Shown here piece by piece: positions 8,754-46,373 of a DNA stretch of 64,000 nucleotides; position 1 is the stretch's first letter, and the number at the start of each line of letters is the position of its first letter. This DNA comes from a virus (Duplodnaviria; Caudoviricetes): the IMG/VR virus record IMGVR_UViG_3300005512_000001, positions 96,001 through 160,000 of that record. One strand, given 5' to 3'. Below the pieces are notes generated by a model. That model saw only the letters and a program-made list of their open reading frames with translations. It was not told the origin of the DNA and made no database searches. The position numbers and the translations under genes are program-made.

Positions 8754-8939
8754 TCAGTTGCCCCTCAGATTATTCAGGGCGTCGATGTTGGCCTTGGTGG
8801 CCTTGATTTCGGGTTTCAGCGTCGGCCACACTTTCCCAATAATCTGTTTGGCCAACTGCCCCATGATTACCAGCCCGGTAATCCAAACTGCTGAATTACC
8901 AAGGACCTTGGCGAGTTCGATAAGTTCGGTATCCATCAC
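8754..8939 (-). CDS. small membrane protein
   Basis: AGGAG RBS with GTG start; one hydrophobic helix. Confidence 0.6.
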   Translation of the reverse strand: MMDTELIELAKVLGNSAVWITGLVIMGQLAKQIIGKVWPTLKPEIKATKANIDALNNLRGN

Positions 8940-8976
8940 TTGCTCCTAGAAAGGTCTGTTCCTCGTCGCCTTATAG

Positions 8977-9054
8977 TGGCGCAGAGCTGCGGCCACGCCA
9001 ATTACCCATTTCCCTCTGGCGCAGAGCTGCGGCCACGCCAATTACCCATTTCCC
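8977..9054. repeat. 38-bp tandem duplication (8977-9014 / 9017-9054) of a promoter -35/spacer segment
   Basis: seen directly. Confidence 0.9.
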
Positions 9055-9194
9055 CTAAGCAGGGCACAAGAAATCCCTAATCTAATTAGCGTGTGGATAA
9101 ATAAAAAGGGAGGGGTTACCTCCCTTTGTGGTCCGTAATATGCTCTGTAAGAGTGGGGGGCTGCCTTCTACCGCATGATGCACCTCGTTCCAGT

Positions 9195-9302
9195 CTAGTG
9201 CTTTGTGGCGTTGTTATATCCAACCCAAATGGCAAATCCTGCCAACCAGGTGGTGAAGAGCCATTTCCAGAGTTCCAGGATTTGGTCGCAAGGAATTGCC
9301 AT
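9195..9302 (-). CDS. 35-aa membrane peptide
   Basis: TGATG coupling to the upstream gene; MAIPCDQILELWKWLFTTWLAGFAIWVGY. Confidence 0.5.
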   Translation of the reverse strand: MAIPCDQILELWKWLFTTWLAGFAIWVGYNNATKH

Positions 9303-9559
9303 CAGACCGGAACCTTGAGGCTGAGCCGGATAATCATCCCGGAAACCGTATCGCCGATATTCGTCTCTTTCGGTTCGGTGTGCCAAGACGGAGAACTGCC
9401 ACTCACGCCATGCGGCATATGGAAATTCTCGATGTGCCGGAATGTCACGTAGTCGTTGTACCCGTCGCAATGGTTGGTGGCCATCACGATATCGCCGGTC
9501 TGAACTCCCAACTTCTTGAGTTCACCTATTACGGCGTCGTAGAATTCACCCGGTTTCAT
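9302..9559 (-). CDS. hypothetical early protein
   Basis: GAGGAG RBS; ATGA overlap. Confidence 0.65.
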   Translation of the reverse strand: MKPGEFYDAVIGELKKLGVQTGDIVMATNHCDGYNDYVTFRHIENFHMPHGVSGSSPSWHTEPKETNIGDTVSGMIIRLSLKVPV

Positions 9560-9777
9560 TTGAGAATCTCCTCGGCAAGCCGTCTTTGACGGATTTGCTG
9601 CTCGGGGGTTAGGATGCTCGGACCGTAGAGTTGCTCATCGATTGCCCGCAATTGCTCCCGTTCAGAGTCAGTCAGAACCTCTTTCGCGGCCAATGCCCGT
9701 TTTTGGTCTAGTAGTTCCATAAAGGAGATGCCCGGATTCGAACCGGGCGATTGTACTTGCTGTACCCGTATCTCCAT
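9556..9777 (-). CDS. hypothetical protein (start may be 9720)
   Basis: helical ORF; 5' part overlaps the tRNA-like element. Confidence 0.5.
   Translation of the reverse strand: MEIRVQQVQSPGSNPGISFMELLDQKRALAAKEVLTDSEREQLRAIDEQLYGPSILTPEQQIRQRRLAEEILK
9723..9775 (-). other. tRNA-like minihelix (acceptor stem plus canonical T-arm, no D or anticodon arm)
   Basis: GGAGATA-N21-CCCGG TTCGAAT CCGGG-CATCTCC-T. Confidence 0.45.
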
Positions 9778-9782
9778 GAGAC

Positions 9783-9811
9783 GGGGGGAGTCCCATTTCG
9801 GGACTCCCCCC
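9783..9811 (-). terminator. hairpin downstream of paralog B
   Basis: GGGGGGAGTCCC-loop-GGGACTCCCCCC; GGAGTCCC/GGGACTCC core shared with the 4816 hairpin. Confidence 0.7.
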
Positions 9812-9819
9812 TTTGGCCG

Positions 9820-10263
9820 CTAGGCCGTGGCGGTCTCGGCTTCCTCGACCGGGGCATCGGCGTCGTCCGGTTCGGGGTCGGTGGTGTCGGCGGCGATCGA
9901 CTCCAGGACGATGAAGTCGGAGACCTTACCGGGCGCGTAGCCCTTCTTGGTCCACGCCTTCCACTTGTCGGAGTCGGGGGCCGGGAGCGGGTGCGTCATG
10001 CACTCGGCGTCGTAGCCCTTGCCGAGTCGCTGTTCGTCGCCCGAACCGTAGACGTTGGCCGACGTGAAGGTGTTCTCCTGGCGGTTGATCGCCAAGATGG
10101 ACACGGCGGCAGTGCCGAAATCGTGGTCCATGCCCTTGACCAGCACTTCGGAGGCCGGGATGGGCTTCCCGAGGATGCCAAACCGCTTGCGGGCTTGGGC
10201 CTTCGAGAGGCTGGGGGTCTCGGGGATTTCGACGGTCTCGGTCTTCGCGTTCTTCCTCGGCAT
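9820..10263 (-). CDS. early protein, paralog B
   Basis: AGGAG RBS, two promoter motifs upstream, very high GC3; paralog of 4875-5228. Confidence 0.85.
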   Translation of the reverse strand: MPRKNAKTETVEIPETPSLSKAQARKRFGILGKPIPASEVLVKGMDHDFGTAAVSILAINRQENTFTSANVYGSGDEQRLGKGYDAECMTHPLPAPDSDKWKAWTKKGYAPGKVSDFIVLESIAADTTDPEPDDADAPVEEAETATA

Positions 10264-10381
10264 GGTTGAATCTCCTATATCGTCAACCGTGTTATCAAAG
10301 GGGCGGCGTTCGCCCCGCATCTCTTTGTGTCGCACCGTTCGCTGCCGGTCAATTGCCAGTGAAGGTCGTCGTTGTCTCCAA

Positions 10382-11073
10382 TTCCCGACAAAAAGTGGTG
10401 TTGCGCCAGCCGGTCGCGGTCAATTGGGTGGTTGGTGGGACAACTGGGTATTTAGATCGGTGCCCCAGTGGCCTTGAACTCGGCCCAGAATTCATCACTC
10501 CACTCCTCGTATTCAACTACCGAATCATCGGCGTTGATGACTGCCTCCGCGAGATCTGAGGCGTCGAGGAAGTCGTAAAGGTCTCGCCTGTTAACGCCAT
10601 CCTCACCAGCGTGGAGGATATCGAGTTTGCCATTCTCCACCCCGCAATACGCCCATCCGGGACCAAATCCAACCCATACATCGATCGGAATCATGGCTCT
10701 GGCATCATCCTCTTGGGGTGATTTCACCCATCCGAAGTTGCTGACTCGGAATTTCCCCCCATCGGCTCGGATCAGGACGTTGGGGAATGCCGGTCGGCTA
10801 TGTCCCATGTACAACTTGTCGCCATTGTCGAATTCCACATAGGCATAACATTCATGGCCTCGTACTTTTGTCGCTTTCATCCCAATCTCCTAGAAGTGGT
10901 GGTCTTTCGCTCGGTTTTATAGTGTCGCGCCAGCTCACGCCGGCCAATTGGGTATTTCCCACCTAACTACGAGCTGCCCCGTCCTCAGTTAACGTCGCCT
11001 TATCCGTTCGTGAACCACCCCAAATGCCCTTCCCGACAAAAAGTGGTGTTGCGCCAGCCGGTCGCGGTCAATT
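10382..11073. repeat. identical 44-bp direct repeats (10382-10425, 11030-11073) flanking one gene cassette
   Basis: TTCCCGACAAAAAGTGGTGTTGCGCCAGCCGGTCGCGGTCAATT twice. Confidence 0.92.
10452..10880 (-). CDS. hypothetical early protein
   Basis: AGGAG RBS, own promoter motif at 10919-10947. Confidence 0.75.
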   Translation of the reverse strand: MKATKVRGHECYAYVEFDNGDKLYMGHSRPAFPNVLIRADGGKFRVSNFGWVKSPQEDDARAMIPIDVWVGFGPGWAYCGVENGKLDILHAGEDGVNRRDLYDFLDASDLAEAVINADDSVVEYEEWSDEFWAEFKATGAPI

Positions 11074-11224
11074 ACTTGGACCCTGCTTAGGGGAAGGAAT
11101 ACATGGGTATATGGGTAACTATGGGGGAATACATGGGTATTCCTCGGGTAGTACATTAAGTGTTTTTCCGACGCGTAATATATTTCCGCGTGAAGGGTTT
11201 GGATATTTGTTATCCAGTATTTTT

Positions 11225-11265
11225 AGCGTCAGCGTCAGCGTCAGCGTCAGCGTCAGCGTCAGCGT
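11225..11265. repeat. hexamer microsatellite (AGCGTC)6+
   Basis: seen directly. Confidence 0.95.
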
Positions 11266-11498
11266 TGGAAACGATGGAAACGACGAGGGTCCACTGGGTC
11301 CACCCGCCATATGACATACATTAGAATCATTGCGATTAACCCACCAGACCCAGCAAAGCAAAGTTGCAATGCCATAAATGTATCACTAGAATCCCACGGC
11401 ATGTCCTCATACCAAGACACACGAAGATATAGCATCATATTAATAGCGGCGACCGAACCACTAAACCATGCTATGCAGATGGCTATCAGTATGGACAA
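11259..11498 (-). CDS. small two-TM membrane protein
   Basis: two hydrophobic segments. Confidence 0.5.
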   Translation of the reverse strand: MSILIAICIAWFSGSVAAINMMLYLRVSWYEDMPWDSSDTFMALQLCFAGSGGLIAMILMYVIWRVDPVDPRRFHRFQR

Positions 11499-11554
11499 CG
11501 TTGGTTCCCCTCGTCGTTTCCATCGTTTCCGTCGTTTCCATCGTTTCCATCGTT
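11267..11554. repeat. 23-bp inverted repeat (11267-11289 / 11508-11530) built from GGAAACGAT 9-mers
   Basis: GGAAACGATGGAAACGACGAGGG and its reverse complement; extra 9-mers to 11554. Confidence 0.85.
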
Positions 11555-11878
11555 GATGTCTTTCATAAAACGATGAAGAAGATTAAGGTAATCATAACAT
11601 GCTATATCTAAAGATTCTTCATCGTGTATTGTTTCCAATAATGTTTCATGCAGGCACGACGCATAAGCATTCAGCCGCAGTGTCCTAGGGCTATTCATAA
11701 TATACCAAATCTTCTCTAAGCCGCCAAATTCCCACGCCCACATAAAAAATACCATATTGCCATTATAGTCGCGCAATCTTTGCAACATATCAGCTATGCA
11801 GCTAAGAAGAGCATCAACCATGTCTTCTGTGTGTTCTGTGTGTTCTGTGTGTTCTGTGTCTTTTGTGTGTTCATTCAT
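11486..11878 (-). CDS. hypothetical protein with TEH and GND microrepeats
   Basis: likely start MNEHTKD; 9-bp repeats at about 11824-11858. Confidence 0.45.
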   Translation of the reverse strand: MNEHTKDTEHTEHTEHTEDMVDALLSCIADMLQRLRDYNGNMVFFMWAWEFGGLEKIWYIMNSPRTLRLNAYASCLHETLLETIHDEESLDIACYDYLNLLHRFMKDINDGNDGNDGNDGNDEGNQRCPY

Positions 11879-12086
11879 CTCGTTCAAATTGCACCACCAA
11901 ACTAATATAAATAGCGCAAGATAATGGCCCAAATATGAATGATATTATGCTGAAGAATACATCGTCGATGGAGTCCGGATGATTATGGCCCCAAGTTATG
12001 CCATACCGTATATGCATCCACACCAATAGCCCAAAGGCGAGCATCCCAAAACTGAACCAATAGATAATAAACCAAGCAGGTGGCAT
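11871..12086 (-). CDS. small membrane protein
   Basis: hydrophobic; GGA RBS. Confidence 0.55.
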   Translation of the reverse strand: MPPAWFIIYWFSFGMLAFGLLVWMHIRYGITWGHNHPDSIDDVFFSIISFIFGPLSCAIYISLVVQFERDE

Positions 12087-32200: not shown

Positions 32201-32473
32201 ATGAATATGTTGCTTAAACTCGGTAAAAATGGCCATCCAATAACTAGAAAAATAAAAGTTCCATTAAGCCATTTAGAACTTAAGCTCATTGATAATTGCG
32301 GTGTGGATATTGAAATTGGCGACAGGAAACCAATAATGACTCATATGTTTCTTGTGCGCGGACCTGGAATAAACTCAAATCTTGTTAAAAGTGTTAAGTT
32401 ACCAAAACTAACATATGACGACGCATGTGAAGCTATTGCTATTGTAGAATCATACGTCTTACATGGAGATTAA
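32201..32473 (+). CDS. hypothetical protein
   Basis: 90-aa ORF. Confidence 0.55.
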   Translation: MNMLLKLGKNGHPITRKIKVPLSHLELKLIDNCGVDIEIGDRKPIMTHMFLVRGPGINSNLVKSVKLPKLTYDDACEAIAIVESYVLHGD

Positions 32474-35400
32474 GCAGAATCACCGTCAATTGCCTCGTAT
32501 GCACCCATATCGACCCTTGAACCCTGCGGCCTAGTGACACCATTTATACCAACACTGATATCTTCACCATATAAGTAGAAATACAAGTCAATGTATTCTT
32601 GGAGTGACCCATTTCCAGTTCCGCTTGGAGCACCAGCATTAATAGCTGGCGATATTATACTGCCATCTTTAAGGTCGAAGTCATTATTAACTAAATCAAC
32701 AAACTCGGGGTCTCCCTCTATGCAACCTTCGCCCTTGCCAGTAGCATTCTGGAAGTCAACTATTGAGGCATAAACTCCACTCCAAAGCATTCTAATGGTA
32801 GAATCGCTATGTGGGTCTAATAAATTATATTCCATATCAGAAGTGCTGGCAGTAGAACCCTCAAAATTGATGTGATAATTTCCATCTGTTATCTCGGCTA
32901 CGATGTTGTTTATTAAATTAATGCCATTATTAAAGCCAGCAGTTAGTCCAACGTCGCAATTACTTATTGTGTTGTTTATGAAATAAGTGTTGATTGAATT
33001 TCTCGCATGGAAGCCCACACCAATGGTGTATACACTATCTGGGTCTACTACTACATCACCATGGCTCATATTGTATATCTCATTGCCTATGACGTAAAAG
33101 TTTGTTGATTCAGTGGTTTCTATGCCATTCTCACCATCATGGATGCTGTTATTAATAAACCAAACTCTTTCTGGATTATAATGTATAACATTAGTCGCAC
33201 CAGGTCGCGGTTTGTACGCTCTACCAAATGCATATGTCTCATTTTCTGAACATACAACATCTTGGCACTCTTTTATATCAATAGCGTTTTCGCCTTCATG
33301 GTGCATAGTATTTCTAGCGACATAAATAAATTCATCGCTACTTAAATCATCGTCCATTCCATTAACTTGTATTGAATCGCCACCATTGTGATACATTTCA
33401 TTATCTATAACCCACACTCTACGTGCATATGAGTTCACAGTAACAGCATGAATGTCATTTTCATCTACCGATTGCCAATCACCATTATCATATATGATAT
33501 TATTATAAAATATGATATCATATATATAGTCAGTTGACTCTGTGCAGTAAATTGATACTCCGCCACCATCACGGCATGTGCAAGTCCTAATTATAATGTG
33601 ATGCGCATCATTTCTGCAGGTTGCACTTACTAAATCCAAATTTTCAACTATCAAATAATACGATGGATTATAATAACCTATATTAAGAACTCTATCGAGC
33701 CTTGGTAATTCCATATCGCTAGTACCACGCAAAAAGACTGGTAATTCTGCTGTACCATTTGCATATACGGAATTCTTCCCAGCTGCCCCAAGATACCCAT
33801 CTCCATGTACTTCAACAACACTGCCAGCCGCTAGAGTCTGTGGTATTGTTACTCTAGGTAAACTCGGAGTTCCATAAGTATTGCCACTATCTGTTGCGAG
33901 TGGGTCCTCTCTATCAACATAATGCGTATATGGCCCATCAGACCCAATTTTATATGGCTCTGGCCCAGCACCATAATCATAAGTATATTGTTCTCCAGTC
34001 CCATTCAGCCCGGCGTACATCCAATGTGTTTGTTCTATGCTAAATTCAGGTCTTGGTATACCAGTTGGTTTAACCCATATACCAATGCGTTCAATTTGTA
34101 TATTGTTGGTGGTGTCACTCTCACGCACCTCAACAGTTAATGTTCGCCCACGGATTAGAACAGGGTCGCCAATATTTTTCCATGGCCCTTCGGTATCAAC
34201 ATAATCGTCCGGCGGCACTGTCTGGTCTACCGTTTCAGCTTCAAGTAGGTTTGAAATATCAGAGTTTACATTGTTTACAACCCTATATTCTGCTTCAGTA
34301 GACCCAACTGTATCTGGGTCCCATGTAGCAGAAACTTGGTATTCATAACCAGGAGATAGGTTTTCGAATGCAAATACTGCTACAACACCAGAACTAGAAG
34401 AGCTAGTACTCGATGAGCTAACAGAGCTAGATGAACTGCTAGTACTCAATGAACTCGACGAGCTACTTACCGAAGAACTAGAGCTACTTACTGAAGAACT
34501 AGAACTAGACACCGAAGAGCTAGAACTCGATGAACTAGAAGAATAGCCAGATGAACTTGATGAACTCGATGAGCTACTTACTGACGAACTAGAGGAGCTA
34601 GAGGGCACCGCAACCTCGCCAATAGCACCCATAGAGAAAACAGCCATACTATTTCTTGGTTTAATAAGGTCATAATAACCTCTAGCATGCTCATGGATTT
34701 CACCGGCACTCAACGCCCGATTCCACATAGCCGCCATCCCAACCCAACCGTCCCAATAAGAGGTCTCGGCATTCCGGCCACCTATTATTAACGGATGGGA
34801 AGTATCAGCTATATCACCAGCAGTATCAGCGGCATTTTCCGCCCCTATCTCTCCATTATAATAAATAGCGCTATAGCCACTCTTGCGAACACATGTTAAT
34901 ATAAACCAATTTCTCGGGTCACGACCCGATGCTGGGTCAAGACCTAGAGGCCAGTTCGTCTGCCAATTATCGCCGCCTGTCACATCGCCGAACCATAATA
35001 GATTCTCGCTTTGTTGCCATACTAGCTCAAACGAATCGATACCGCTACCAGAACGATAAAATATATATTCTGAGCCAGTGGTAATCACCCCTTTATAATT
35101 TCTGGCCAAAATACTAACAGTGACTTCATTTACATCTAGCCTAGAATTATTAGCAACCTCAACAATCCCCAACGCCATTGCCTGGCCTTCCCAATCCCAA
35201 TTAGGGCCAGTCGGTGTCCCAAATAGTGTTTGGTCGGCAACGTTCATTACTCTGTCGCCAGTTCCTTCCCAGAAAGGCCAGTAACCTACTAATCCATTAG
35301 AAAGAGGATGCTTATTGTTAATGCCTGGTGCCCATATACGTGGTTTAACCATCGTCAATGCATTAGGTGCACCAGCTGGCGATATTTGAGAACTCGATGA

Positions 35401-36489
35401 GCTACTTACTGACGAACTAGAACTAGACACCGAAGAGCTAGAACTCGACGAGCTGCTAGGCGACACTATACTAGAGCTAGATGAACTACTGTATGGTGGT
35501 GATACTATAGAACTCGACGAGCTACTTACTGACGAACTAGAGGAACTACTTACGCTCGATGAACTACTTACTGACGAACTAGAGGAGCTACTTACGCTCG
35601 ATGAGCTACTTACTGAAGAACTACTGCTACTTATGCTCGATGAGGAGCTACTTACTGATGAACTAGAAGAGCTACTTACGCTCGATGAGCTACTTACTGA
35701 CGAACTAGAACTAGACACCGAAGAGCTAGAACTCGATGAGCTGCTAGGCGACACTATACTAGAGCTAGATGAACTACTGTATGGTGGTGATACTATAGAA
35801 CTCGACGAGCTACTTACCGAAGAACTAGAGGAGCTACTTACGCTCGATGAGCTACTTACTGAAGAACTACTGCTACTTATGCTCGATGAGGAGCTACTTA
35901 CTGAAGAACTACTGCTACTTATGCTCGATGAGGAGCTACTTACTGAAGAACTAGAAGAACTGCTCGCACTAGATGAGGAGCTACTTACCGACGAACTACT
36001 GCTACTTATGCTCGATGAGGAGCTACTTACTGAAGAACTAGAAGAACTGCTCGCACTAGATGAGGAGCTACTTACCGACGAACTACTGCTACTTACGCTC
36101 GATGAGGAGCTACTTACTGACGAACTACTGCTACTTATGCTCGATGAGGAGCTACTTACTGATGAACTGCTACTACTAGATGAGCTTGATGAACTCGGGA
36201 CAAAATCTGGGTCATATATAGTGCTAGTAAATTTGTATGCTGATATTTTGCCAGATAATATAAAATCATTAATTTGCGAGGCATTAAAACGCGTTGCTTC
36301 TATATATATAATTTCATCTATAGATAATGTTATAAGTCCACCAACATAGTGTGGAATTCTAGAATGGACCAATATTCGTGAAGCGGGTATAGTTCCACAA
36401 ATTAATGACAGCCTTTGCCCACTAATATTGGTAACAACTATTATTTCTTTGGTCAGACGAGTCTGATTCGTCTTACGTACCCGCTTCAT
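32470..36489 (-). CDS. putative tail spike/adhesin: poly-Ser linker, LamG domain, poly-Ser, golvesin-C-like module, right-handed beta-helix
   Basis: GLVGYWPFWEGTG...WNRALS (LamG); YQVSATW...VDQ..PDD; NxxYxNG repeats; SPAINAG...RPQG...DMGAYE. Confidence 0.8.
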   Translation of the reverse strand: MKRVRKTNQTRLTKEIIVVTNISGQRLSLICGTIPASRILVHSRIPHYVGGLITLSIDEIIYIEATRFNASQINDFILSGKISAYKFTSTIYDPDFVPSSSSSSSSSSSSVSSSSSSISSSSSSVSSSSSSVSSSSSSVSSSSSSASSSSSSSVSSSSSSISSSSSSVSSSSSSASSSSSSSVSSSSSSISSSSSSVSSSSSSISSSSSSVSSSSSVSSSSSSSVSSSSSSIVSPPYSSSSSSSIVSPSSSSSSSSSVSSSSSSVSSSSSVSSSSSSSVSSSSSSISSSSSSVSSSSSVSSSSSSSVSSSSSVSSSSSSSVSSSSSSIVSPPYSSSSSSSIVSPSSSSSSSSSVSSSSSSVSSSSSSQISPAGAPNALTMVKPRIWAPGINNKHPLSNGLVGYWPFWEGTGDRVMNVADQTLFGTPTGPNWDWEGQAMALGIVEVANNSRLDVNEVTVSILARNYKGVITTGSEYIFYRSGSGIDSFELVWQQSENLLWFGDVTGGDNWQTNWPLGLDPASGRDPRNWFILTCVRKSGYSAIYYNGEIGAENAADTAGDIADTSHPLIIGGRNAETSYWDGWVGMAAMWNRALSAGEIHEHARGYYDLIKPRNSMAVFSMGAIGEVAVPSSSSSSSVSSSSSSSSSSGYSSSSSSSSSSVSSSSSSVSSSSSSVSSSSSSLSTSSSSSSVSSSSTSSSSSGVVAVFAFENLSPGYEYQVSATWDPDTVGSTEAEYRVVNNVNSDISNLLEAETVDQTVPPDDYVDTEGPWKNIGDPVLIRGRTLTVEVRESDTTNNIQIERIGIWVKPTGIPRPEFSIEQTHWMYAGLNGTGEQYTYDYGAGPEPYKIGSDGPYTHYVDREDPLATDSGNTYGTPSLPRVTIPQTLAAGSVVEVHGDGYLGAAGKNSVYANGTAELPVFLRGTSDMELPRLDRVLNIGYYNPSYYLIVENLDLVSATCRNDAHHIIIRTCTCRDGGGVSIYCTESTDYIYDIIFYNNIIYDNGDWQSVDENDIHAVTVNSYARRVWVIDNEMYHNGGDSIQVNGMDDDLSSDEFIYVARNTMHHEGENAIDIKECQDVVCSENETYAFGRAYKPRPGATNVIHYNPERVWFINNSIHDGENGIETTESTNFYVIGNEIYNMSHGDVVVDPDSVYTIGVGFHARNSINTYFINNTISNCDVGLTAGFNNGINLINNIVAEITDGNYHINFEGSTASTSDMEYNLLDPHSDSTIRMLWSGVYASIVDFQNATGKGEGCIEGDPEFVDLVNNDFDLKDGSIISPAINAGAPSGTGNGSLQEYIDLYFYLYGEDISVGINGVTRPQGSRVDMGAYEAIDGDSA
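35388..36197 (-). repeat. poly-serine coding repeats including a duplicated IVSPPYSSSSSSSIVSP block
   Basis: seen directly; second tract at about 34390-34603. Confidence 0.9.
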
Positions 36490-36513: not shown

Positions 36514-37470
36514 TTATGACATAAACCCCCTTATGTCTTCTTTACGCTTTTGTACCAACTTCTTTTTGTCTTTTGGCATATCGCCTTCACCCAAAAGCTG
36601 ATCGCAACCTTCCAAGAAGTATTCATATGCAAAATCATCAGTATACACTCGTTCTTCAGCGGTTCTAGTTTTGACGGATTTTAGAAACCCTTTAAATTCC
36701 TCAAAATAACTACCATAAATATGAAACGAATCGACGATATGAACATATTCCCCTATTTTTATACCAAGTTGTGATGCTACATATGATTGCAACTCTACAA
36801 ACGCATACATATTCATAAATGATGCCTTATAGGCATCATTGCTTCTCATATGGACAGTCATATTTAATTTAGAAATATATCCATTATCACAATTGGCACA
36901 ATGCCCCGACCCATGATTGTTATGGCATGTTTTGCATAACGACTTTTCTATTCTAAACCAAAGCCTTTGTAAGCATGCTGGGTCATGGATGCCTAAATCT
37001 TTCCAACACTGCCATGTGACTGCTTGGGCACGCCTGGTGTGGCCACAATTTTTTAGTATTTTGACGCATTGTTCGATTTGGTTTATTAGTCTTTCTTTTG
37101 GAGAATATGTTCCTTTAAACCTGCCATATTCCCAATCTTCTTCTTTTTCTATAATATCATATTCAAACAACCTCTCATGATATGTATATTCCCATTTACC
37201 AGCTGATGGGTCTACCCAGTGGTCATGGACTCCCAAAAGCACCTCATCTCTGTACTTTTCTAAATCATCTAAACCACCTGGAAATGCTCGATGGATACGT
37301 GGTTCAGCCATTGGGTTCAGGATATGTATCATTGCAGTTACATCACGGCTATTCGGGTCATCTGCCTGATCGTATTCTGTTGGGAACATTGCACCATGCC
37401 TCCAGCACTCAAACACAGCTTTTTCCCAGGCAATTGGCAGCGTATCTTCGACAATATGGATTGTTTTCAA
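36514..37470 (-). CDS. thyA: thymidylate synthase (short archaeal-type ThyA)
   Basis: GGAG RBS with TTG start; YTYHERL, TRRAQAVTW, DPACLQ, MRSNDAYKASFMN, SFHIY. Confidence 0.88.
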   Translation of the reverse strand: MKTIHIVEDTLPIAWEKAVFECWRHGAMFPTEYDQADDPNSRDVTAMIHILNPMAEPRIHRAFPGGLDDLEKYRDEVLLGVHDHWVDPSAGKWEYTYHERLFEYDIIEKEEDWEYGRFKGTYSPKERLINQIEQCVKILKNCGHTRRAQAVTWQCWKDLGIHDPACLQRLWFRIEKSLCKTCHNNHGSGHCANCDNGYISKLNMTVHMRSNDAYKASFMNMYAFVELQSYVASQLGIKIGEYVHIVDSFHIYGSYFEEFKGFLKSVKTRTAEERVYTDDFAYEYFLEGCDQLLGEGDMPKDKKKLVQKRKEDIRGFMS

Positions 37471-37557
37471 TTTTAATCTCCAAAATTTGTTGTTGGTTCT
37501 AATACATAACGATGGTATATACTGCAAATATAAATGTGGCACTTTAGGAGTACTGAA

Positions 37558-37791
37558 ATGGTCGAAAAAGAACATAATTACCCAAAAACTAGTAGTACAG
37601 AGATGAAAAAGGTCAACAATGCTGTTGTGGGCGATTCTAAGAAACAAACCACATACAACGGCCCACACTTAAATGGTGGAAAGGGCACTGTATATAACCA
37701 AGCCAAAATCACAAATGGTTTTATGACACAAGATTCAAGACCAGGGCATAAACAGCAAGGAAATATAGAGGATAATGCGACTAATAAGTAG
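37558..37791 (+). CDS. small hydrophilic protein
   Basis: AGGAG RBS; CAAATATA upstream. Confidence 0.6.
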   Translation: MVEKEHNYPKTSSTEMKKVNNAVVGDSKKQTTYNGPHLNGGKGTVYNQAKITNGFMTQDSRPGHKQQGNIEDNATNK

Positions 37792-37806: not shown

Positions 37807-38406
37807 ATGAATCTATCAAACACAAAAGTTTATCTATGCGGACAAATTGAAAACGATCCAGAGGCGATGGGTTGGAGATTAGATCTGGCCCGCCGCCTCC
37901 CGCTTATCAACCCAACAATATCTGTTTGGGACCCAATGGTTAAGCCAGAATGGGTTCATCCAGATATTAAAAATAACGAAATGGCCTTCGCATGGAAACA
38001 ATATATCAATAGCAACCCCAGCGATGAGTGGCAAGGCGAAATGTGCCATATTGCTAATAAAAAAGTTCGAAGAATATGCAAACAATTGGCCAATAAATGC
38101 GATTGGATGATTGCTAGAATATGCAAAAAGTTTACATGGGGTAGTATAGATGAGTTGGAAATTGCAATAAACAGGAAAATTCCTGTATTTCTATGGCTAC
38201 CTGATGGATTGATTAGCATATATGGCATAGCTGGAGTCATAGAGGATTACAGCCTGGTCCCATATTATATGCATGAAGATATGGAATCATTACTAACTAC
38301 GATTTCCGATGTAGATAAGGGTATTTCTGATTTGCTGAAGAAAGACCCAGAGACTTGGATGACGTTATCGTGGACTAATGCTGCCTCGGAGACAAATAAT
38401 GCGTAA
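37807..38406 (+). CDS. nucleoside 2-deoxyribosyltransferase / dNMP N-glycosidase superfamily protein
   Basis: VYLCGQIE...WR...WDP...CDW...GSIDEL...KIPV. Confidence 0.75.
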   Translation: MNLSNTKVYLCGQIENDPEAMGWRLDLARRLPLINPTISVWDPMVKPEWVHPDIKNNEMAFAWKQYINSNPSDEWQGEMCHIANKKVRRICKQLANKCDWMIARICKKFTWGSIDELEIAINRKIPVFLWLPDGLISIYGIAGVIEDYSLVPYYMHEDMESLLTTISDVDKGISDLLKKDPETWMTLSWTNAASETNNA

Positions 38407-39103
38407 AGTAGAATTAGATGTAAACAAACAGTCACAACTAAACAGCGCGACTGAATTTACCAGGAGGCATATGTGTCCTGCGATTGTAGTGTCGCCAGAT
38501 TTGGTTACCGGCGCACATATCGCTAGGTCGGTATCAAGGTCAAACCACAAGATTATCACAGCTGTTGATTGGCCTAAAGGGACGCAATATTTAAGTGATA
38601 AATTCAGGGGAATGCCATCGGAATCAATTAGTGCTGATGGGTTTGAAATTTTACTAACTGCTAATGGAAAGCTTGGCATCCTAAAGGAAATAAAATTCCT
38701 TTCAAATTTCTTTCGTGACCATTTCCCACCAACTATAGAACTTAGGTTTGTCTTGGGGTGGCACATGCAGGATAGAACTGTAGACCAATTTGAGTATATG
38801 GTTGATGCGTGTAAACAAATACCAAATCCTACATTAATCAGAACTACCCACTTAACTAAGATTAGTTCTGCAAATGGGTCTATAGAATCACATAATAGCG
38901 TGATTGATAAAATTCTGGCAATTAGAAATATCCCAATCAAGATTAGTGGCAACATCAACGCTAAATCACGTATTGGCTGCAAAAAAGCTGTAAGATTTGC
39001 ATGCACTTTAGAGCAAGCCACAGTATTACAAAAAGCATTATCAAATAATGCTATTGGTCAAATCAATAAAGCAGTACACGAAGCTGAAGAATCCATTTCG
39101 TAA
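38399..39103 (+). CDS. DeoC (deoxyribose-phosphate aldolase)-like TIM barrel, degenerate
   Basis: AVDWPKG, ADGFE, IRTT (for KTST), IKISGNI, RFACT. Confidence 0.55.
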   Translation: MRKVELDVNKQSQLNSATEFTRRHMCPAIVVSPDLVTGAHIARSVSRSNHKIITAVDWPKGTQYLSDKFRGMPSESISADGFEILLTANGKLGILKEIKFLSNFFRDHFPPTIELRFVLGWHMQDRTVDQFEYMVDACKQIPNPTLIRTTHLTKISSANGSIESHNSVIDKILAIRNIPIKISGNINAKSRIGCKKAVRFACTLEQATVLQKALSNNAIGQINKAVHEAEESIS

Positions 39104-39115
39104 ATCTTAGTGTTA

Positions 39116-39173
39116 AATTCTTTTCATATTGCACCTTCAAATATATCATAGGAGGTGCAATATGAAAAGAATT
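39116..39173 (+). promoter_or_regulatory. 21-bp inverted repeat sequestering the RBS and ATG, with CAAATATA in the loop
   Basis: AATTCTTTTCATATTGCACCT / AGGTGCAATATGAAAAGAATT. Confidence 0.75.
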
Positions 39174-39386
39174 ATATTAGCACTCATCATCATCTTATTG
39201 TTGCCGGGATGCGGCATATTGGACGGTTCAACCCGTATAGTCCCAGCAGAATCTATGGCCACTAGAGAAATAGAAGAGAAAGGCGAGGGACACACTGCCA
39301 CTGGTGTATTTGTATTTAGGTATTATCCTAAGGGTACGTACCCAAAATTCGCAATGCCTATAGAGGAGAAAAACAATGAGCAATAA
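39162..39386 (+). CDS. small lipoprotein
   Basis: GGAGG RBS; MKRIILALIIILLLPGC lipobox. Confidence 0.75.
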   Translation: MKRIILALIIILLLPGCGILDGSTRIVPAESMATREIEEKGEGHTATGVFVFRYYPKGTYPKFAMPIEEKNNEQ

Positions 39387-40266
39387 AGGCATACGAAGAA
39401 CTATCATAGGATTATTGATTAGCACTACCTCGTTGGCTATATTGTGCGTACTATTAACAACGATTGTGATTATGCGGCCAACAGTAATAGAGAAAGTTGA
39501 CTCAGGCCCAGGTGTTGTGACATATGACTTGGGCAATGGCAGGAAAATTACCGCACCAGGCGATGGGATTATAGAATGGAGTGGGAATTTCACTGATATA
39601 ACAACCCCCACATCATTGAGTCGTACAGATGAAGCTGAAGCTGTAGGCGTGGCGTTTAAAGCTACTGGTGCGAATGGCAAGTTTATTTTAGAGATGGACT
39701 TTGAGCTGCCAGAAGCGAACATACCTGATGGCCCAACGAGCTTAGCCGGTCATGCTAATATGGGTGTCAAAGCCATCTTCTCTAATGGCGCAACATCAAT
39801 TTATATTATCGCCGCACTATCGATTTTAGTTGGTTGTGTGCTAGGATTCTGGCTAAAAGCTTGGAAAGTTGGGCTAGGGTTTATAGTTGGCGGCGTGACG
39901 ATGTTTGCAGTCGCAAAATTTTTCACAACATATCCTTGGGTGTTACTCATATTGTTTTTTGTGGTGATAGCTGTAGTCGGATTTATATTATGGGATTACT
40001 GGAAGAAACGAAAAACCGGCGAGACAATGGACGCCATTATTGCTGCTGGCGAGGGCTTGCCAACAAAAGTCAAGGCTGCTTTTACTAAATTAGTAAGTGC
40101 AGAGGCGCAGGCACGTGGTGTTAGCAGCACGGCTAAGAAGATTGTAAGTGAGCTTAAAACTAAGTCTGCAGTGCCGCTAGCTAAAATAGATTTAAGCGAT
40201 GAGTTAAAAGAAATATATGAGACGTTAAAAGAGCAACCAAATAATCTATCGGAGGATGAGGGTTAA
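39376..40266 (+). CDS. multi-TM membrane protein
   Basis: GAGGAG RBS; 1 N-terminal and 3 central TM segments. Confidence 0.75.
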   Translation: MSNKGIRRTIIGLLISTTSLAILCVLLTTIVIMRPTVIEKVDSGPGVVTYDLGNGRKITAPGDGIIEWSGNFTDITTPTSLSRTDEAEAVGVAFKATGANGKFILEMDFELPEANIPDGPTSLAGHANMGVKAIFSNGATSIYIIAALSILVGCVLGFWLKAWKVGLGFIVGGVTMFAVAKFFTTYPWVLLILFFVVIAVVGFILWDYWKKRKTGETMDAIIAAGEGLPTKVKAAFTKLVSAEAQARGVSSTAKKIVSELKTKSAVPLAKIDLSDELKEIYETLKEQPNNLSEDEG

Positions 40267-40318
40267 ACATTCACGCTGTTTCTTGATGTATTTATTATTA
40301 TATAGATTAGGAGACAGC

Positions 40319-41569
40319 ATGTTTAATACAAACTTCGTATTTCATCCAGGGAAAATAGCAGTACTGCTAGATGGTGGTGCTGGTTCTAGCGGCAAAGGCA
40401 AATTAGCATCTTTTATAGGTGAAAACGCCAGTAATTGGCAATTTTGCTGCCAAGCATTTATGTCGAACGCCGCGCATTGGGTAATCGACGATGATGGCAA
40501 TAAATATCTATACCAAGCCCTAAACTCGGTGGCACACCTAAAAGACAAATATGAAAAGATGTATATCTGCGGTGGTGCTGTTTTAGAACTAGAGCCGCTT
40601 CTAAAAGAAATCGAGCTACATGGGCTGACACCAGATAAACTTGGCATACATCCTGTTGTTGCGATTGTGCAGCAAAAAGATGTGGATTATGAGCGTGGGG
40701 TGTGCAATTTTGAGGGCGATCCGTTTGACAATATTGTTCAATCAGATTGTATGAAGCTTGGTTCCACATTACATGGGGTCGGAGCGGCTAGAGCTAGAAG
40801 AATTTTGAGGCGGTCAGATATCTTGATTGCTAGAGACGTACCAGAGCTGCAACCTTTCCTATGTCAAACAGACTGTGAGATGATGGATAGGTTAGAACGC
40901 GGCCAAGCAGGGCTATTGGAGATAGCCCAAGGCTACCAGCTCGGCTATCTCACAAAGTTCTATCCCAAAACCACATCTCGCAATTGTACTGTCGCAGCCG
41001 GGTTGGATGATTGCGGACTACCACCATCCGTAGTACAAGATGTTCTTATTAACTTTAGAACATTCCCAATTAGAGTTAACAATAATAAATATATTCATGC
41101 TGAAACTGGTGCAGTGCTTACAGGCCAGGATATGGATGAGATGCGGGCCGCTGGCAATGCTGATATGATTAAGACACTCAAGGGCGACTCCGGTGGTTGT
41201 TATGATGACCAAGAAGAAGTGACATGGGAGTATATTACCGAATCAAGTGGCGTTAAGAATCTAGACCCAACAAGGGAGATTCGCGAGAGAACATCACTCA
41301 CAAAACTAGAACGTAGAGCATACACTTTTAGCAAGCAAAATCTACAAGATGCGATAAGGTTCAATCGTGGTAATGGCCACACATATCTATCTATCAATTT
41401 CATAAACTATGTTGATATGGCAATTGAAGGAAAACGTGGCGGGCCTGAGCAATTGACCGACAAAATCAAGACATGGATAGACGCAAATATTGAAATTATA
41501 AACCCAGAGACAGAGACTCTGAAATTCCTGGGTACCGGCGCATTAACAAACGATATGGTCGTATTATAA
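40319..41569 (+). CDS. purZ: adenylosuccinate synthetase family, PurZ-type (Ser at PurA Asp13)
   Basis: DGGAGSSGKGK, SNAAH, EIAQGYQLG, FYPKTTSRNCT, RTFPIRV, SGGCYDDQEEVTWE, TSLTKLERR, NFINY. Confidence 0.7.
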   Translation: MFNTNFVFHPGKIAVLLDGGAGSSGKGKLASFIGENASNWQFCCQAFMSNAAHWVIDDDGNKYLYQALNSVAHLKDKYEKMYICGGAVLELEPLLKEIELHGLTPDKLGIHPVVAIVQQKDVDYERGVCNFEGDPFDNIVQSDCMKLGSTLHGVGAARARRILRRSDILIARDVPELQPFLCQTDCEMMDRLERGQAGLLEIAQGYQLGYLTKFYPKTTSRNCTVAAGLDDCGLPPSVVQDVLINFRTFPIRVNNNKYIHAETGAVLTGQDMDEMRAAGNADMIKTLKGDSGGCYDDQEEVTWEYITESSGVKNLDPTREIRERTSLTKLERRAYTFSKQNLQDAIRFNRGNGHTYLSINFINYVDMAIEGKRGGPEQLTDKIKTWIDANIEIINPETETLKFLGTGALTNDMVVL

Positions 41570-42977: not shown

Positions 42978-45900
42978 TCATTCTATCAAACACGCACCGC
43001 CTGCACAAGCCTTCTCAGAACGCAGTGTTGTGTTGTCGTCTTCTTCCCTAAATTTCGTCCAGTCGATTGATTGGCTATTATTAATTAAATTCTGCCAGAT
43101 AGTTTTATCTGATTCTGTCTTAACCTCTTCCCTTGGTGCGTTAACATATTCTTTATCGCCTGTGTCTGGCAACATTGATACGCCGCTGAAGAATTTACGG
43201 TGCCGCCATAGGAATTCTTTTACATCATCCCATTCATCTTGCTTTACAGTAATGGTGTTAGAAACATTATGTGTCACACCAGGTGACGAATTTGGTTTTG
43301 CAGTTCCAGGAATAACCCAATTACGCTGGGTCATTAATACCTTTTCTAAGAATTCAATCGCTGTTAGGTCATGCCTAGTAATAGCATTTTCAGGTGCTTT
43401 GATAGGGAATGTGATTAGGTCTTTCCTGGCATCAACTGAAATGCACATATGTGGGTTCTTATTTTTAAAATGTTTATAGACTGGGCAGTCTGGGTTGGCA
43501 CGCACTCTCCTGAAATATTTCTCTGCATGATGAGTATGAATGCCACTACCAACTGCACCTAATACAATAGATGCAGAACCGCTTGGCTTAATACATGTGA
43601 CTCTGGCTGCGGTGTTAATTCCGATTCTATTTGCAATATCAATATTGGTTTCGACTGCTACCTGTGCAGCGTTTCTCTGGATTTCCGGATTTAGTGCGAT
43701 ATCAGGATTATCCATAACGCCGGTCATCGATACACCAAGTAGTGCCTCTTTATTGCAAACTGCTTCACTTACCCATCCAAGATATTTAAAATCAGTATAG
43801 CCAGCTTGAGCTGTGCCGATAATCGCAGCAGCCTTTACACGCTCATATAGCTCTTGTTCGTTATCAACATCAGATACATTTACTTCTGTTAGGTTGCACA
43901 TCTGCCATCCCCAATGGGTGGCATTTACTTTCAGGTTTGGGAGTTTGCGGTTAGTTGATGCTGCCCACTTGCTGAGGGACATCTTCAATTCTGGTGTGAT
44001 GGTCAACTTCGGATTCATCCCGATTTCTACACAATTATGAACATACAACCCATTAGCGTCAAAAGCAGATGGGCCTGGCACCGTACAATCATACACTGGA
44101 TGAATACCTATATGATCTATTGATTTGATGGTGTCATATATATTATCAGACCAAAAGTTATTGTCTTTAATCTCTTCTAATTTTTTGGCTTTTTGTGCGT
44201 TGCTAAACCCAACCTGTGACGCGAACCTTTTAATCGATTTACCAGATATGATTAAATCATGCGTCGCTGCACAAATTACTTTTTTATATCCACCATGACC
44301 ATTAGGCATTGGAATGCGACGTTCTGCATGCCTTTCTTTAGCAATATTAGATTTTATGCCAAAATAACTTAATATGAGTTGTACTTTTTTTAGGTTATCT
44401 AGTTGATTAGAACACAATCTAATACTATATCTTCCTTTAGACGCGATAGTAACAGTTCCATCTGCATCAAAATATCCAGTCAGAAACCCTCTTAATAACG
44501 ATTTGGATGACTTCAATAATTGATCAGATATATGCTTACCACCACCCTTTAAATTTAAATCTCTGAATAGATGATATGAAACTGCTAAATTATATAATTT
44601 TTTGCTTTCTGATTGCACATAAGGATTTGCAATAATTGCTTTACTAAATTTTTCTCTACTATAATTCGGATGATTTTCGGAATTAAGTCCAGATTTTTGT
44701 AAAATATCATTGGCAAATACCCTATCTTGATATTTATCATCACCCCAAAATTTTATTTGTGCTGAATTGCCACGTGCTCTTTTAACAATATTTCCATCAC
44801 CAATAAACCATCCCAATACCAGCCCCTTGCCCCATTCTTTTTCATCTGAATATTGGTTTGATGCAGAATGGCTACTATGATCATGCAATTTGATGTTGTC
44901 ACCAACCATCAAATTTCCAACAGATTGCCACCCATTATTAGTCATGACTTTGTGATTAGCAGTAATATCAATATGTCGGCCACTTTTCATCTCAACACGT
45001 AACACTTGTTTTGATCCTGTTGGGAAGAACCCATTAGATTTGAACTTTTTACCGTCAACTACTGCTTTAAATGGCACGTCAAGTAGGTCACATACTTGTT
45101 TTAATCCATCATCGGTGCTAACCCAAGTATCGCCAGTAACACATGGGTTTGCGCCGGTATCTTCATCATCTGTAAAATAAAATCCTGGCTCGCCCCATTG
45201 CTCTGTGGCTTTAAAGATTCGACAGAATTGTCTTTTCTTGATGTCTTTGCGATGCAAAACGACAGAATTATTTGCTCTAGCACGCCATGGATGTGTACTA
45301 TACCAGTTGCCAGTTTTTGAATTCATCATCTCACCATCATCTAGTGAGAATAAACAAATCATTGCTGCTTCTCTGATTCCGCCAGCATAAACGGCGTTAG
45401 CTAGCATACACATAATATCATAACATTCGATTGGTTTTAGTTGTCTACCTTGAGCATTTTCAAGCACCTTTCTGACATTGTTTAATGACGACTTCAATGG
45501 CAGATGCCCAGGTGCTCTTCCACCTGACGTTTTGAGTAATGCACCTTGTGGCCTGATTTTGTTGTATGCGAATTCAACATATACTCCTGTACGTAAGTAT
45601 GACCTAATAAGCTCATGGGCAGCGTCGGCCCATCCTTCTATAGTATCAGGTACTATATGGTGAATAACGTTTTTCTTGTCAATAAACTTGACAGGTTCTA
45701 GCTGGTCAATGTGCTGGAATTGGACTGAAAATCCAACGCCTGTTCCACTAAGTAGAAGCCAGAATGCTTCTGAGAATGCACGCGCCCTGTTTATAATAGA
45801 AAAGCTACAGTTATAACCTTTAGCATTATTTGCCTCCATCGCTGGGCCGCCAAACTGCATAGACCTCATTGATGGTAAGACTTGCTTCGCCCGCACTTTA

Positions 45901-46373
45901 TTAAACGCCCATTCCAATTCTTTTGTGATAGAAGGATATCTATCTATATGCATTTGCTCTACACGGTCGACTATTTCTGGGAAAATTTCCCGTCGATTGA
46001 GTTCTGGTTTAAAACGTGAGTATCGCGTCATAGTTACATAATCGGCCATCATTTCAGTGTTTGGCTCTATGCGTAATTTAGCTTGCCTATCACTAAAGAG
46101 GATGAAAGCTTCTGCTACCTCATGGTATTGGTAATCCATTAACTTGCGTTTGACAATACCAGTAATAACATCGGTAGCGATTACACCATTATCAGCGGTA
46201 ATAGCAGCCTCATTGATGATAGATTCGATCAGATTTTCAAATTTACCATTTATGTCATGGCCGGTTTCTGCCGCTGACCTTTTAATCCCATACTCAATTT
46301 TAGACTTGTCAAAATCGACTAATGAACCATCACGTTTTGACACCTTTGGTGTAGTTGCAACAGAAGTGGGCAT
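42978..46373 (-). CDS. nrdJ: class II (B12-dependent) ribonucleotide reductase with N-terminal ATP cone and intein
   Basis: KRDGS...FD..KI; PSMRSMQFGG, YNCS, GVGFS, GEPG, NP|CVEI, CNLTE, TCIKPSG, C-terminal CAGGAC. Confidence 0.88.
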   Translation of the reverse strand: MPTSVATTPKVSKRDGSLVDFDKSKIEYGIKRSAAETGHDINGKFENLIESIINEAAITADNGVIATDVITGIVKRKLMDYQYHEVAEAFILFSDRQAKLRIEPNTEMMADYVTMTRYSRFKPELNRREIFPEIVDRVEQMHIDRYPSITKELEWAFNKVRAKQVLPSMRSMQFGGPAMEANNAKGYNCSFSIINRARAFSEAFWLLLSGTGVGFSVQFQHIDQLEPVKFIDKKNVIHHIVPDTIEGWADAAHELIRSYLRTGVYVEFAYNKIRPQGALLKTSGGRAPGHLPLKSSLNNVRKVLENAQGRQLKPIECYDIMCMLANAVYAGGIREAAMICLFSLDDGEMMNSKTGNWYSTHPWRARANNSVVLHRKDIKKRQFCRIFKATEQWGEPGFYFTDDEDTGANPCVTGDTWVSTDDGLKQVCDLLDVPFKAVVDGKKFKSNGFFPTGSKQVLRVEMKSGRHIDITANHKVMTNNGWQSVGNLMVGDNIKLHDHSSHSASNQYSDEKEWGKGLVLGWFIGDGNIVKRARGNSAQIKFWGDDKYQDRVFANDILQKSGLNSENHPNYSREKFSKAIIANPYVQSESKKLYNLAVSYHLFRDLNLKGGGKHISDQLLKSSKSLLRGFLTGYFDADGTVTIASKGRYSIRLCSNQLDNLKKVQLILSYFGIKSNIAKERHAERRIPMPNGHGGYKKVICAATHDLIISGKSIKRFASQVGFSNAQKAKKLEEIKDNNFWSDNIYDTIKSIDHIGIHPVYDCTVPGPSAFDANGLYVHNCVEIGMNPKLTITPELKMSLSKWAASTNRKLPNLKVNATHWGWQMCNLTEVNVSDVDNEQELYERVKAAAIIGTAQAGYTDFKYLGWVSEAVCNKEALLGVSMTGVMDNPDIALNPEIQRNAAQVAVETNIDIANRIGINTAARVTCIKPSGSASIVLGAVGSGIHTHHAEKYFRRVRANPDCPVYKHFKNKNPHMCISVDARKDLITFPIKAPENAITRHDLTAIEFLEKVLMTQRNWVIPGTAKPNSSPGVTHNVSNTITVKQDEWDDVKEFLWRHRKFFSGVSMLPDTGDKEYVNAPREEVKTESDKTIWQNLINNSQSIDWTKFREEDDNTTLRSEKACAGGACLIE
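44034..45143 (-). mobile_element. 370-aa intein with LAGLIDADG endonuclease, inserted at the RNR NPC active site
   Basis: CVTGDT...ITANH...LGWFIGDG...FLTGYFDADG...VYDCTVPG...VHN|C. Confidence 0.95.

Follow-up and report, generated by a model that had tools for sequence, protein, structure and literature searches.

The phage DNA analysed here (the window, 64,000 nt from the complete 341 kb genome of an uncultured phage) encodes a protein that is, by its sequence, an intact long-form PurZ, the enzyme that by name and homology would start 2-aminoadenine (Z) synthesis. A glycosidase/aldolase-like gene pair accompanies PurZ in dozens of large phages. On the strength of the sequences, of structural models and of analogy with known systems, we think it rather probable that these genes make up a nucleotide-pool module for Z DNA in a jumbo phage. 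A broader proposal, to which we give somewhat less than an even chance, is that large and jumbo phages have fully Z-substituted genomes and that a long PurZ, a dAMP glycosidase of the NDT type and an enzyme derived from DERA (its lysine shifted from β6 to β7), which destroys the deoxyribose 5-phosphate set free, replace DatZ in them. The genes of the locus are listed in Table 1.

Table 1. Genes at the purZ locus (positions within the window).
Feature	Position	Strand	Evidence and remarks
Divergent ThyA-superfamily gene	36514-37668	-	Pfam PF00303, 7.5e-13; neighbour, outside the module
NDT/DNPH1-superfamily protein, 199 aa	37807-38406	+	AF2 fold, triad; candidate dNMP N-glycosidase (modelled)
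DERA (DeoC)-fold TIM barrel, 234 aa	38399-39103	+	AF2 fold; non-canonical active site
Small ORF, 85 aa	39129-39386	+	Lipoprotein signal matched weakly; no conservation among relatives
Predicted membrane protein, 296 aa	39376-40266	+	Between the NDT/DERA-like pair and purZ
Long-form PurZ, 416 aa	40319-41569	+	2-aminodeoxyadenylosuccinate synthetase homologue (phrog_1211, 1.7e-35)
Class II ribonucleotide reductase with LAGLIDADG intein	42978-46373	-	Neighbour only

Identity of the synthetase

The translation of 40256-41569 contains the motifs GSSGKG, NFRTFPIRV, SGGCYDDQEEVTWE and SINFINY. The true start of the gene is most likely ATG 40319, which is preceded by AGGAGA 5 nt upstream, and relatives of the protein start at residue 21-24 of the longer translation. 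In the PDB the best matches were PurZ of PhiVC8 (4e-23) and of S-2L (1.4e-19). The P-loop Ser of the window protein aligns with S14 of PhiVC8 PurZ and with D13 of E. coli PurA, and the same Ser was present in all 116 proteins bearing the motif (G-S-x-G-K) among the 150 nearest representatives; in the literature, Ser is found in 100% of the phage PurZ-group enzymes and Asp in 99% of the PurA group. The protein lacks the GTP-type TKLD of PurA and has an ATP-type N-F-x-N-Y pocket (N360, F361, N363 and Y, covering the PhiVC8 F295 and Y298 positions), where the Y298 position is occupied by Q in PurZ0 and by K or V in PurA. At the 12 positions given by Yang et al. as distinguishing PurZ from PurA, seven residues are those of PhiVC8 PurZ and two more are those of S-2L. 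As many as 22 of the 30 pocket residues of S-2L PurZ are identical, including G22, S23, N49, A50, T132, R146, Q190, T205, R240, V241, R280, N305 and F306. The Val that excludes the 2'-OH (S-2L V241) aligns with V253 of the window protein, and the PurZ-specific insertion that follows it, which also disfavours a 2'-OH, is present and enlarged by ~40 residues.

In trees rooted on E. coli PurA and containing no archaeal PurA, PurZ0 was basal and the window protein fell into one major clade with PurZ of S-2L, PhiVC8 and SH-Ab after the PurZ0 split (SH-aLRT 94, and local support 98 in a second tree). The view of the sequence-only reading that the enzyme is PurZ-type and not PurA-type is thus upheld by the Ser at Asp13, by the ATP-type pocket and by a tree of PurA, PurZ and PurZ0 which puts it on the classic-PurZ side. 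Its alternative, a PurZ clade making another modified purine, finds no support: the residues that form the dGMP and ATP pockets and the aspartate loop in PurZ of S-2L and PhiVC8 have been retained almost throughout.

One could instead suppose that the PurZ-like protein and the PurB-like protein encoded elsewhere in the genome are auxiliary purine enzymes boosting AMP or dAMP from IMP or dIMP in a phage with canonical DNA. A phage PurA-family enzyme together with PurB could in principle aid nucleotide supply, the PDB scores of PurZ and archaeal PurA are similar (4e-23 versus 5e-18), and the aromatic residue that precedes the P-loop in PhiVC8 (F12) is Ala in the window protein. However, the replacement of the PurA catalytic Asp by Ser, the pocket of ATP type, the retained V241 with its insertion and the nested position within the PurZ clade all speak against such a function, and we regard it as quite improbable.

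The glycosidase-like and aldolase-like pair

The first protein of the pair gave a weak match in Pfam (PF15891, E 0.024), and tblastn against GenBank phages returned no match either for it or for its DERA-like neighbour. Its AlphaFold model (pLDDT 85.5) found C. thermalis NDT as the top Foldseek match (8e-6), followed by weaker matches to DNPH1, MilB and BcmB. Across 14 members of the family, Y9, E15, G112, E116 and S137 do not vary at all and D99 hardly varies; Y9, D99 and E116 constitute the Tyr/Asp/Glu triad of the NDT/DNPH1 superfamily. The DNPH1/Rcl and MilB/BcmB/BlsM enzymes, which act on nucleoside monophosphates and release the pentose 5-phosphate, have the fold in common with the window protein and are the best profile matches, but the window family has an extra helical insert of ~40 residues and an N-terminal motif, Y-L-x-G-P/Q-V/I-E, which differs from the Y-F-C-G-S-I-R of DNPH1.

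A published precedent is DmtZ, a dAMP-specific NDT-family hydrolase of DatZ-less Z phages (Poubanne et al., NAR 2026, PMC12884076), and an association of NDT with dZ contigs has been described as well (Yang et al., bioRxiv 10.1101/2025.10.22.683976). Base excision of dAMP, put forward in the sequence-only reading as a possible new route, had therefore already been published. The window resembles the DmtZ system in having an NDT-superfamily enzyme with a Tyr/acid/Glu triad and a dUTPase homologue while lacking DatZ, but its synthetase is of the PurZ and not the PurZ0 type, there is no Dut fusion, and the similarity of the NDT sequences is not significant: BLASTP against Sapo DmtZ failed to reach significance, and hhalign of the family gave E 6.7e-4 with a probability of 27% for the phage Pterodactyl DmtZ domain and a probability of 7% in another DmtZ comparison. 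E15 aligns with DmtZ D12, which leaves an acidic residue at that position, and the lid of DmtZ has its counterpart in the alignment in an S-x-W/Y motif. As its sequence does not place it in the monophyletic DmtZ group, we call the protein DmtZ-like in its presumed working and not a member; from the model and the analogy, it is a putative dNMP N-glycosidase that would be the functional counterpart of DmtZ. Two homologous NDT-superfamily families occur upstream of DERA-like genes (hhalign probability 88.8%), and the shorter sister family, whose best profile matches are the CMP N-glycosidases BcmB, BlsM and MilB, does not retain a Glu at the DmtZ Asp12 position.

The start codon of the second gene, ATG 38399, overlaps the end of the NDT-like gene by 8 nt (stop TAA at 38404-38406) and has a GGAG upstream. 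Its product matched nothing in Pfam or PHROG. All top Foldseek matches of its AF2 model (pLDDT 91.9) were DERA structures (TM 0.69-0.74, E 3e-10), and hhalign of the family with E. coli DeoC aligned 36 columns. In common with the class I aldolase DERA/DeoC, the barrel has the TIM fold, the F/W-P-x-G motif, the S-G phosphate loop, a β4 acid (E83) at the E. coli D102 position and a β7 lysine (K181) at the K201 position. In contrast, the place of the β6 Schiff-base lysine (E. coli DeoC K167) is taken by R148, a correspondence drawn from motifs and predicted strands and not from a residue-level structural alignment. Of 120 family members, 111 have Arg at this position, thus canonical aldolase chemistry is not assured. 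In the nine members with a β6 Lys, the β5 Arg and the β7 Lys are both missing. The three columns covary in such a way that exactly one active-site lysine is always present, which points to lysine-based catalysis over mere binding.

These features also bear on the possibility that the NDT-like protein is mainly a deoxyribose-5-phosphate transferase, passing the sugar from dAMP to free Z base, with the DERA-fold protein as a non-aldolase partner (e.g., one binding or isomerising a sugar phosphate). DmtZ does transfer ~20% to Z in vitro, the window family keeps a D-P motif aligned with DmtZ Pro57, which is what transferases typically have there, and the canonical Schiff-base lysine is absent from the DERA-like protein. 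Nevertheless, de novo synthesis by PurZ is not expected to yield a pool of free Z base, and the lysine that is always retained argues for catalysis by the barrel; such a transferase seems very unlikely to us.

Conservation of the pair and the missing DatZ

Loci found through PurZ had the NDT and DERA-like genes next to it in 13 cases, and a further 20 loci, every one on newly found contigs, were found through the DERA-like gene; PurZ lay 0.05-3.3 kb downstream in 18 of these 20, and elsewhere or at the contig end in the remaining two records. Among the 36 IMG/VR loci an NDT-superfamily gene stood directly upstream of the DERA-like gene in 32, and every one of the 36 records with a DERA-like gene carried PurZ. 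In genome G001, where PurZ is 26 kb away, the pair is still together. None of the 17 records with a long PurZ and no local pair had the pair elsewhere in the record. The pair also occurs in two separate PurZ clades. The partners noticed in the sequence-only reading, an NDT-superfamily N-glycosidase-like gene and a 'DeoC-like' gene, are thereby borne out, the former by its fold, triad and conserved loci and the latter by its modelled DERA fold and conserved loci. That reading did not mention that the phage encodes a PurB itself, that Arg occupies the Schiff-base position of DERA, or that the NDT-DERA-PurZ arrangement recurs in many large phages.

DatZ and MazZ had been noted as not recognisable nearby, and indeed neither was found near the locus or, as orthologues, in the rest of the genome. 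The complete genome had no match to the DatZ-type HD families PF13023 and PF12917, and a phmmer search of it with three DatZ sequences returned nothing. Its only HD match, a protein encoded upstream of the window, was considered as DatZ and rejected, as it is a CCA-adding enzyme. No MazZ or DUF550 orthologue was found in the complete genome, which holds a generic MazG gene at genome positions 162786-163247, 2.8 kb past the end of the window. A DatZ-type HD gene was likewise found in none of the seven module-bearing genomes of at least 91% completeness, while five of the nine complete genomes with a long PurZ and no module had one above the cut-off (one-sided Fisher p ~0.03, which overstates the evidence because the genomes are related). 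The exclusion is not strict, since one genome fragment (G008) carries the module together with a YfbR-like HD gene.

A backbone of Mre11-Rad50 and the genes after it is common to all genomes with the module, so a part of the linkage may be mere inherited gene order; the pair lies in a conserved block of Mre11, Rad50, four further ORFs and then NDT, DERA and PurZ. This leaves room for a reading in which the pair serves deoxynucleotide catabolism or salvage in general, with host dNMPs perhaps degraded as a source of carbon and energy or a pyrimidine dNMP removed, and owes its link to purZ only to the replication-gene backbone of one lineage. Besides its place within that block, the CMP N-glycosidase matches of the short NDT family would fit such a role, the substrate specificity of the NDT-like protein cannot be read from its sequence, and the adjoining ThyA-superfamily gene of the window has a CMP 5-hydroxymethylase as its best PDB match (1e-6). 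On the other hand, the ThyA-like gene was not found in module-bearing related loci, nor in genomes G001 and G005; PurZ accompanies every DERA-like gene while pair-less long-PurZ records have no pair at all; the pair spans two PurZ clades; and DatZ-type HD genes occur in genomes without it. We consider a catabolic or salvage unit unlikely, and a pool module for Z DNA the better account. The same absence of the ThyA family from pair-bearing relatives led us to reject the idea that the ThyA-like and NDT-like genes form a pair of the MilA/MilB kind. ThyA and RNR were both located as the flanks claimed earlier (Table 1), but the ThyA-like gene is missing from module-bearing relatives and a share of the two in the picture finds no support. 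The membrane protein has no homologue in related loci and is thus probably outside the module. Promoter and terminator scans gave results at chance level.

Proposed pathway and comparison with known Z systems

In the proposed pathway, PurZ would condense dGMP with aspartate, using ATP, and a PurB-like lyase of the phage (genome positions 187265-188695) would then release dZMP; both steps are suggested by homology. With no DatZ present, adenine deoxynucleotides would be cleared at the monophosphate level. For this, dATP would first have to become dAMP, with the generic MazG, the dUTPase homologue (genome positions 277864-278391) or the (d)ATP use of PurZ itself as candidates. The NDT-superfamily enzyme may then split dAMP, giving adenine and deoxyribose 5-phosphate. 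This step, like the clearance at the monophosphate level as a whole, is suggested by the fold, by the catalytic residues and by the DmtZ precedent. Most speculatively, the translationally coupled DERA-fold protein would take the deoxyribose 5-phosphate and probably cleave it by means of the lysine moved from β6 to β7, and such cleavage would make the base excision irreversible.

With the classic PurZ-MazZ-DatZ systems of cyanophage S-2L, Vibrio phage PhiVC8 and Acinetobacter phage SH-Ab 15497 the window phage shares a synthetase with Ser in place of Asp13 and with pockets for dGMP and of the ATP type. It differs from them in that its PurZ is ~60-70 residues longer, with the expansion after V241, in that DatZ and a MazZ/DUF550 orthologue are absent while PurB is its own, and in the size of its genome, which is 341 kb as compared to roughly 40-45 kb for these sipho- and podoviruses. 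The coupling of an NDT gene to a DERA-fold gene is not described in the DmtZ paper, where E. coli DeoC served solely as a reagent in assays, and neither an aldolase-like partner of PurZ and NDT nor PurZ in jumbo phages replicated by DnaE was found in the searchable literature.

Z genomes are known from small sipho- and podoviruses. Should this phage lineage indeed use Z, the substitution would reach phages of 100-440 kb and adenine exclusion would have a third solution. The DERA-fold partner would then be a new pathway enzyme and a plain example from nature of how an active-site lysine can shift between the strands of a barrel. Taken together, the genes for PurZ, PurB, the glycosidase and the aldolase-like protein could also serve the production of Z-DNA in cells.

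Identity and phylogeny of the PurZ gene

The genome that supplied the window (G000) is a complete virus record of 341,434 bp with direct terminal repeats, and the region has no DNA-level match to GenBank phages. Along the window, G+C content is 0.50-0.55 at positions 4000-12000 versus ~0.38 across the remainder. The sequence-only reading had recognized here a PurZ-type enzyme, i.e., one starting 2-aminoadenine (Z) synthesis, and its observation was sound: all the motifs it quoted are present in the ORF, and the Ser at the PurA Asp13 site, the pocket residues and the tree position all fit PurZ. The features discussed are collected in the table.

Features of the window and of the complete genome (G000) discussed in the text
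Feature	Position	Strand	Remarks
Concanavalin-like lectin-domain protein, 1,339 aa	window 32470-36489	-	inserted, with the ThyA-like gene, just upstream of the NDT gene
Divergent ThyA-superfamily protein, 384 aa	window 36514-37668	-	only ThyA-family gene of G000
NDT/DNPH1-superfamily protein, 199 aa	window 37807-38406	+	fold model; Pfam match weak only
DERA-fold protein	window 38399-39103	+	start ATG 38399, GGAG ahead; overlaps NDT gene by 8 nt
PurZ	window 40256-41569	+	likely start ATG 40319; motifs and homology
Class II ribonucleotide reductase	window 42978-46373	-	ATP cone; gene interrupted by intein with LAGLIDADG endonuclease
CCA-adding enzyme, 470 aa	G000 contig C1, 91984-93396		poly(A) polymerase head, RNA-binding and HD domains; nearest end 4.0 kb before window start

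The likely PurZ start is preceded by AGGAGA 5 nt upstream, and the N-termini of relatives coincide with it. The window protein matches the PurZ family PHROG 1211 (1.7e-35), and its best match among solved structures is PhiVC8 PurZ (4e-23), followed by S-2L PurZ (1.4e-19) and Pyrococcus PurA (5e-18). An exhaustive HMMER search returned 1,388 relatives; of the 150 top-ranking ones, 116 keep the P-loop motif, and all of these have Ser at the Asp13 site. We then compared positions discriminating PurZ from PurA, taken from the literature and given in PhiVC8 numbering. The same residues are found at S14, P233, Y244, W252, T262, F295 and Y298, two more positions carry the S-2L residue, and the departures are F12 to Ala, G256 to Arg and P144 to Ser. 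The S-2L pocket residues are identical at 22 of 30 positions, and the PurZ-specific insertion after V241 is kept and is ~40 residues larger. At the sequence level, the case for PurZ is strong.

In an IQ-TREE phylogeny of PurA, PurZ and PurZ0, rooted with E. coli PurA and leaving out archaeal PurA, the window protein groups with classic PurZ. PurZ0 is basal in this tree, and the window PurZ falls inside a clade of long-form enzymes (support 99), together with Flavobacterium phage MaF61, nested in a larger clade with the classic enzymes (SH-aLRT 94). A second tree of 73 rows gave the same result (support 98). In a published tree, archaeal PurA lies outside PurZ0 plus PurZ (PMC12884076). Among metagenomic relatives we also noted intein-bearing PurZ proteins of 750-820 aa with LAGLIDADG endonucleases (P0006, P0009, P0010, P0094); inteins occur in both long-form and short relatives, at no fewer than two (at least two) insertion points.

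Folds and active sites of the NDT-like and DERA-like proteins

The upstream gene had been placed in the NDT/DNPH1 superfamily, on which the fold model and the invariant Tyr9 and Glu116 agree. The model, built with 14 aligned relatives (pLDDT 85.5), has structural matches to nucleoside 2'-deoxyribosyltransferases, DNPH1 and the CMP glycosidases MilB and BcmB. Across the 14 family members Ser137 is also invariant and Asp99 nearly so. Glu15, invariant too, aligns to Asp12 of DmtZ, the proposed reader of the adenine 6-amino group (PMC12884076). In some relatives, the NDT-superfamily gene upstream of the DERA-like gene carries a zinc-ribbon-like, Cys-rich N-terminal extension (L024:7483-8112, L093:9337-10002).

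The DERA-like protein found no family match in profile searches, Pfam and PHROG among them. Its model (pLDDT 91.9) has solely deoxyribose-phosphate aldolases as top structural matches, so the resemblance to DeoC read from the sequence holds at fold level. The active-site correspondence was established by motif and predicted strand. By this assignment, the protein retains the beta4 acid (E83) and the beta7 lysine (K181, equivalent to K201 of E. coli), and Arg148 stands at the Schiff-base site of beta6. Across 120 members of the family, which includes the window protein and P0319-P0438, the beta5-beta6-beta7 triplet is R-R-K in 111 and C-K-(V/I/S) in nine, with no mixed forms. Since every member keeps exactly one lysine among these three covarying positions, it looks like the catalytic lysine may have been relocated, being able to occupy either neighbouring strand.

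Association of the pair with PurZ

A pattern search based on the long-PurZ alignment retrieved 57 loci from IMG/VR, the longest contig measuring 436 kb. In 13 of the loci, as in the window, a Mre11-Rad50 block is followed by the NDT gene, the DERA-like gene and PurZ in this order; G001 (320 kb), the closest relative with a complete genome, keeps the two genes of the pair side by side, with PurZ 26 kb away. The reverse search with the DERA-like alignment yielded 20 loci, all on contigs absent from the PurZ-based set. A long PurZ was located downstream on the same strand, at 0.05-3.3 kb, in 18 of these; in the remaining two records PurZ lies at another place or at the end of the contig. Their usual upstream neighbour is a shorter protein of ~130 aa, matching PF05014 in 11/12 members, homologous to the window NDT-like family (hhalign probability 88.8%) and most similar among solved structures to CMP N-glycosidases.

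Overall, the DERA-like gene is present in 36 of 79 loci, with an NDT-superfamily gene immediately 5' in 32 of the 36 and PurZ in every one of these records (36/36). No pair was found elsewhere in records with a long PurZ lacking the pair nearby. The pair next to PurZ is real and closely coupled, and its association with PurZ is specific. The PurZ genes of loci bearing the module (pair plus PurZ) form two separate clades in the 73-row tree. The second of these clades has a conserved ORF of 260-276 aa just downstream of PurZ (L087:12506-13291 and equivalents), whose match to the xylose isomerase-like/AP endonuclease 2 TIM barrel is below threshold (E 7e-6) and which has no equivalent in the window.

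Distribution of DatZ and the proposed role of the pair

DatZ and MazZ had not been recognized near PurZ, and the search of the complete genome found neither: HD_3 and YfbR-like profiles, and DatZ, MazZ and DUF550 queries, gave no match. The sole HD match of the genome was rejected as DatZ, being the CCA-adding enzyme. The genome does encode an adenylosuccinate lyase homologue outside the PurZ locus, a MazG-domain protein 2.8 kb after the window ends, and a dUTPase homologue whose similarity to DutZ of phage Sapo (3e-21) is of ordinary family level.

We compared genomes at least 91% complete. A YfbR-like HD gene occurs in none of the seven module-bearing genomes, and a DatZ-type HD gene (YfbR-like or HD_3) lies above the cut-off in five of the nine with long PurZ and no module, with weak matches in three more of the nine. 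The exception to this otherwise complementary distribution is a 125-kb fragment (G008, the contig of locus L067) with both the pair and a YfbR-like HD gene (102548-102793, E 6e-9). The complementarity suggests that the module substitutes for DatZ; as the genomes are related, the pattern does not represent many independent events.

In actinophages with PurZ0, the NDT-family enzyme DmtZ releases adenine from dAMP by hydrolysis, leaving deoxyribose 5-phosphate, and can also transfer this sugar phosphate to the Z base (PMC12884076). NDT domains have also been associated with dZ-enriched metagenomic contigs (Yang et al., 10.1101/2025.10.22.683976). Thus, the earlier idea of dAMP removal by base excision has a precedent in Z phages but, since this is published, is no longer novel. 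An aldolase-like partner from phages, PurB and jumbo phages are absent from both the DmtZ paper and Yang et al.; two jumbo-phage reviews are silent on Z, PurZ and adenylosuccinate synthetase, and further literature searches gave no relevant results. Judging from the models and by analogy with DmtZ, the pair would most likely serve in adenine-nucleotide clearance in place of DatZ: the candidate NDT-type glycosidase would clear adenine nucleotides as monophosphates, and the aldolase-shaped protein would remove the resulting sugar phosphate through altered chemistry.

In the window, the lectin-domain and ThyA-like genes are insertions, just upstream of NDT, into the otherwise conserved gene order of the Mre11-Rad50 block. 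The best solved-structure match of the ThyA-like protein is the CMP 5-hydroxymethylase MilA (1e-6), not thymidylate synthase. It could be a pyrimidine hydroxymethylase, which would imply a second DNA modification.
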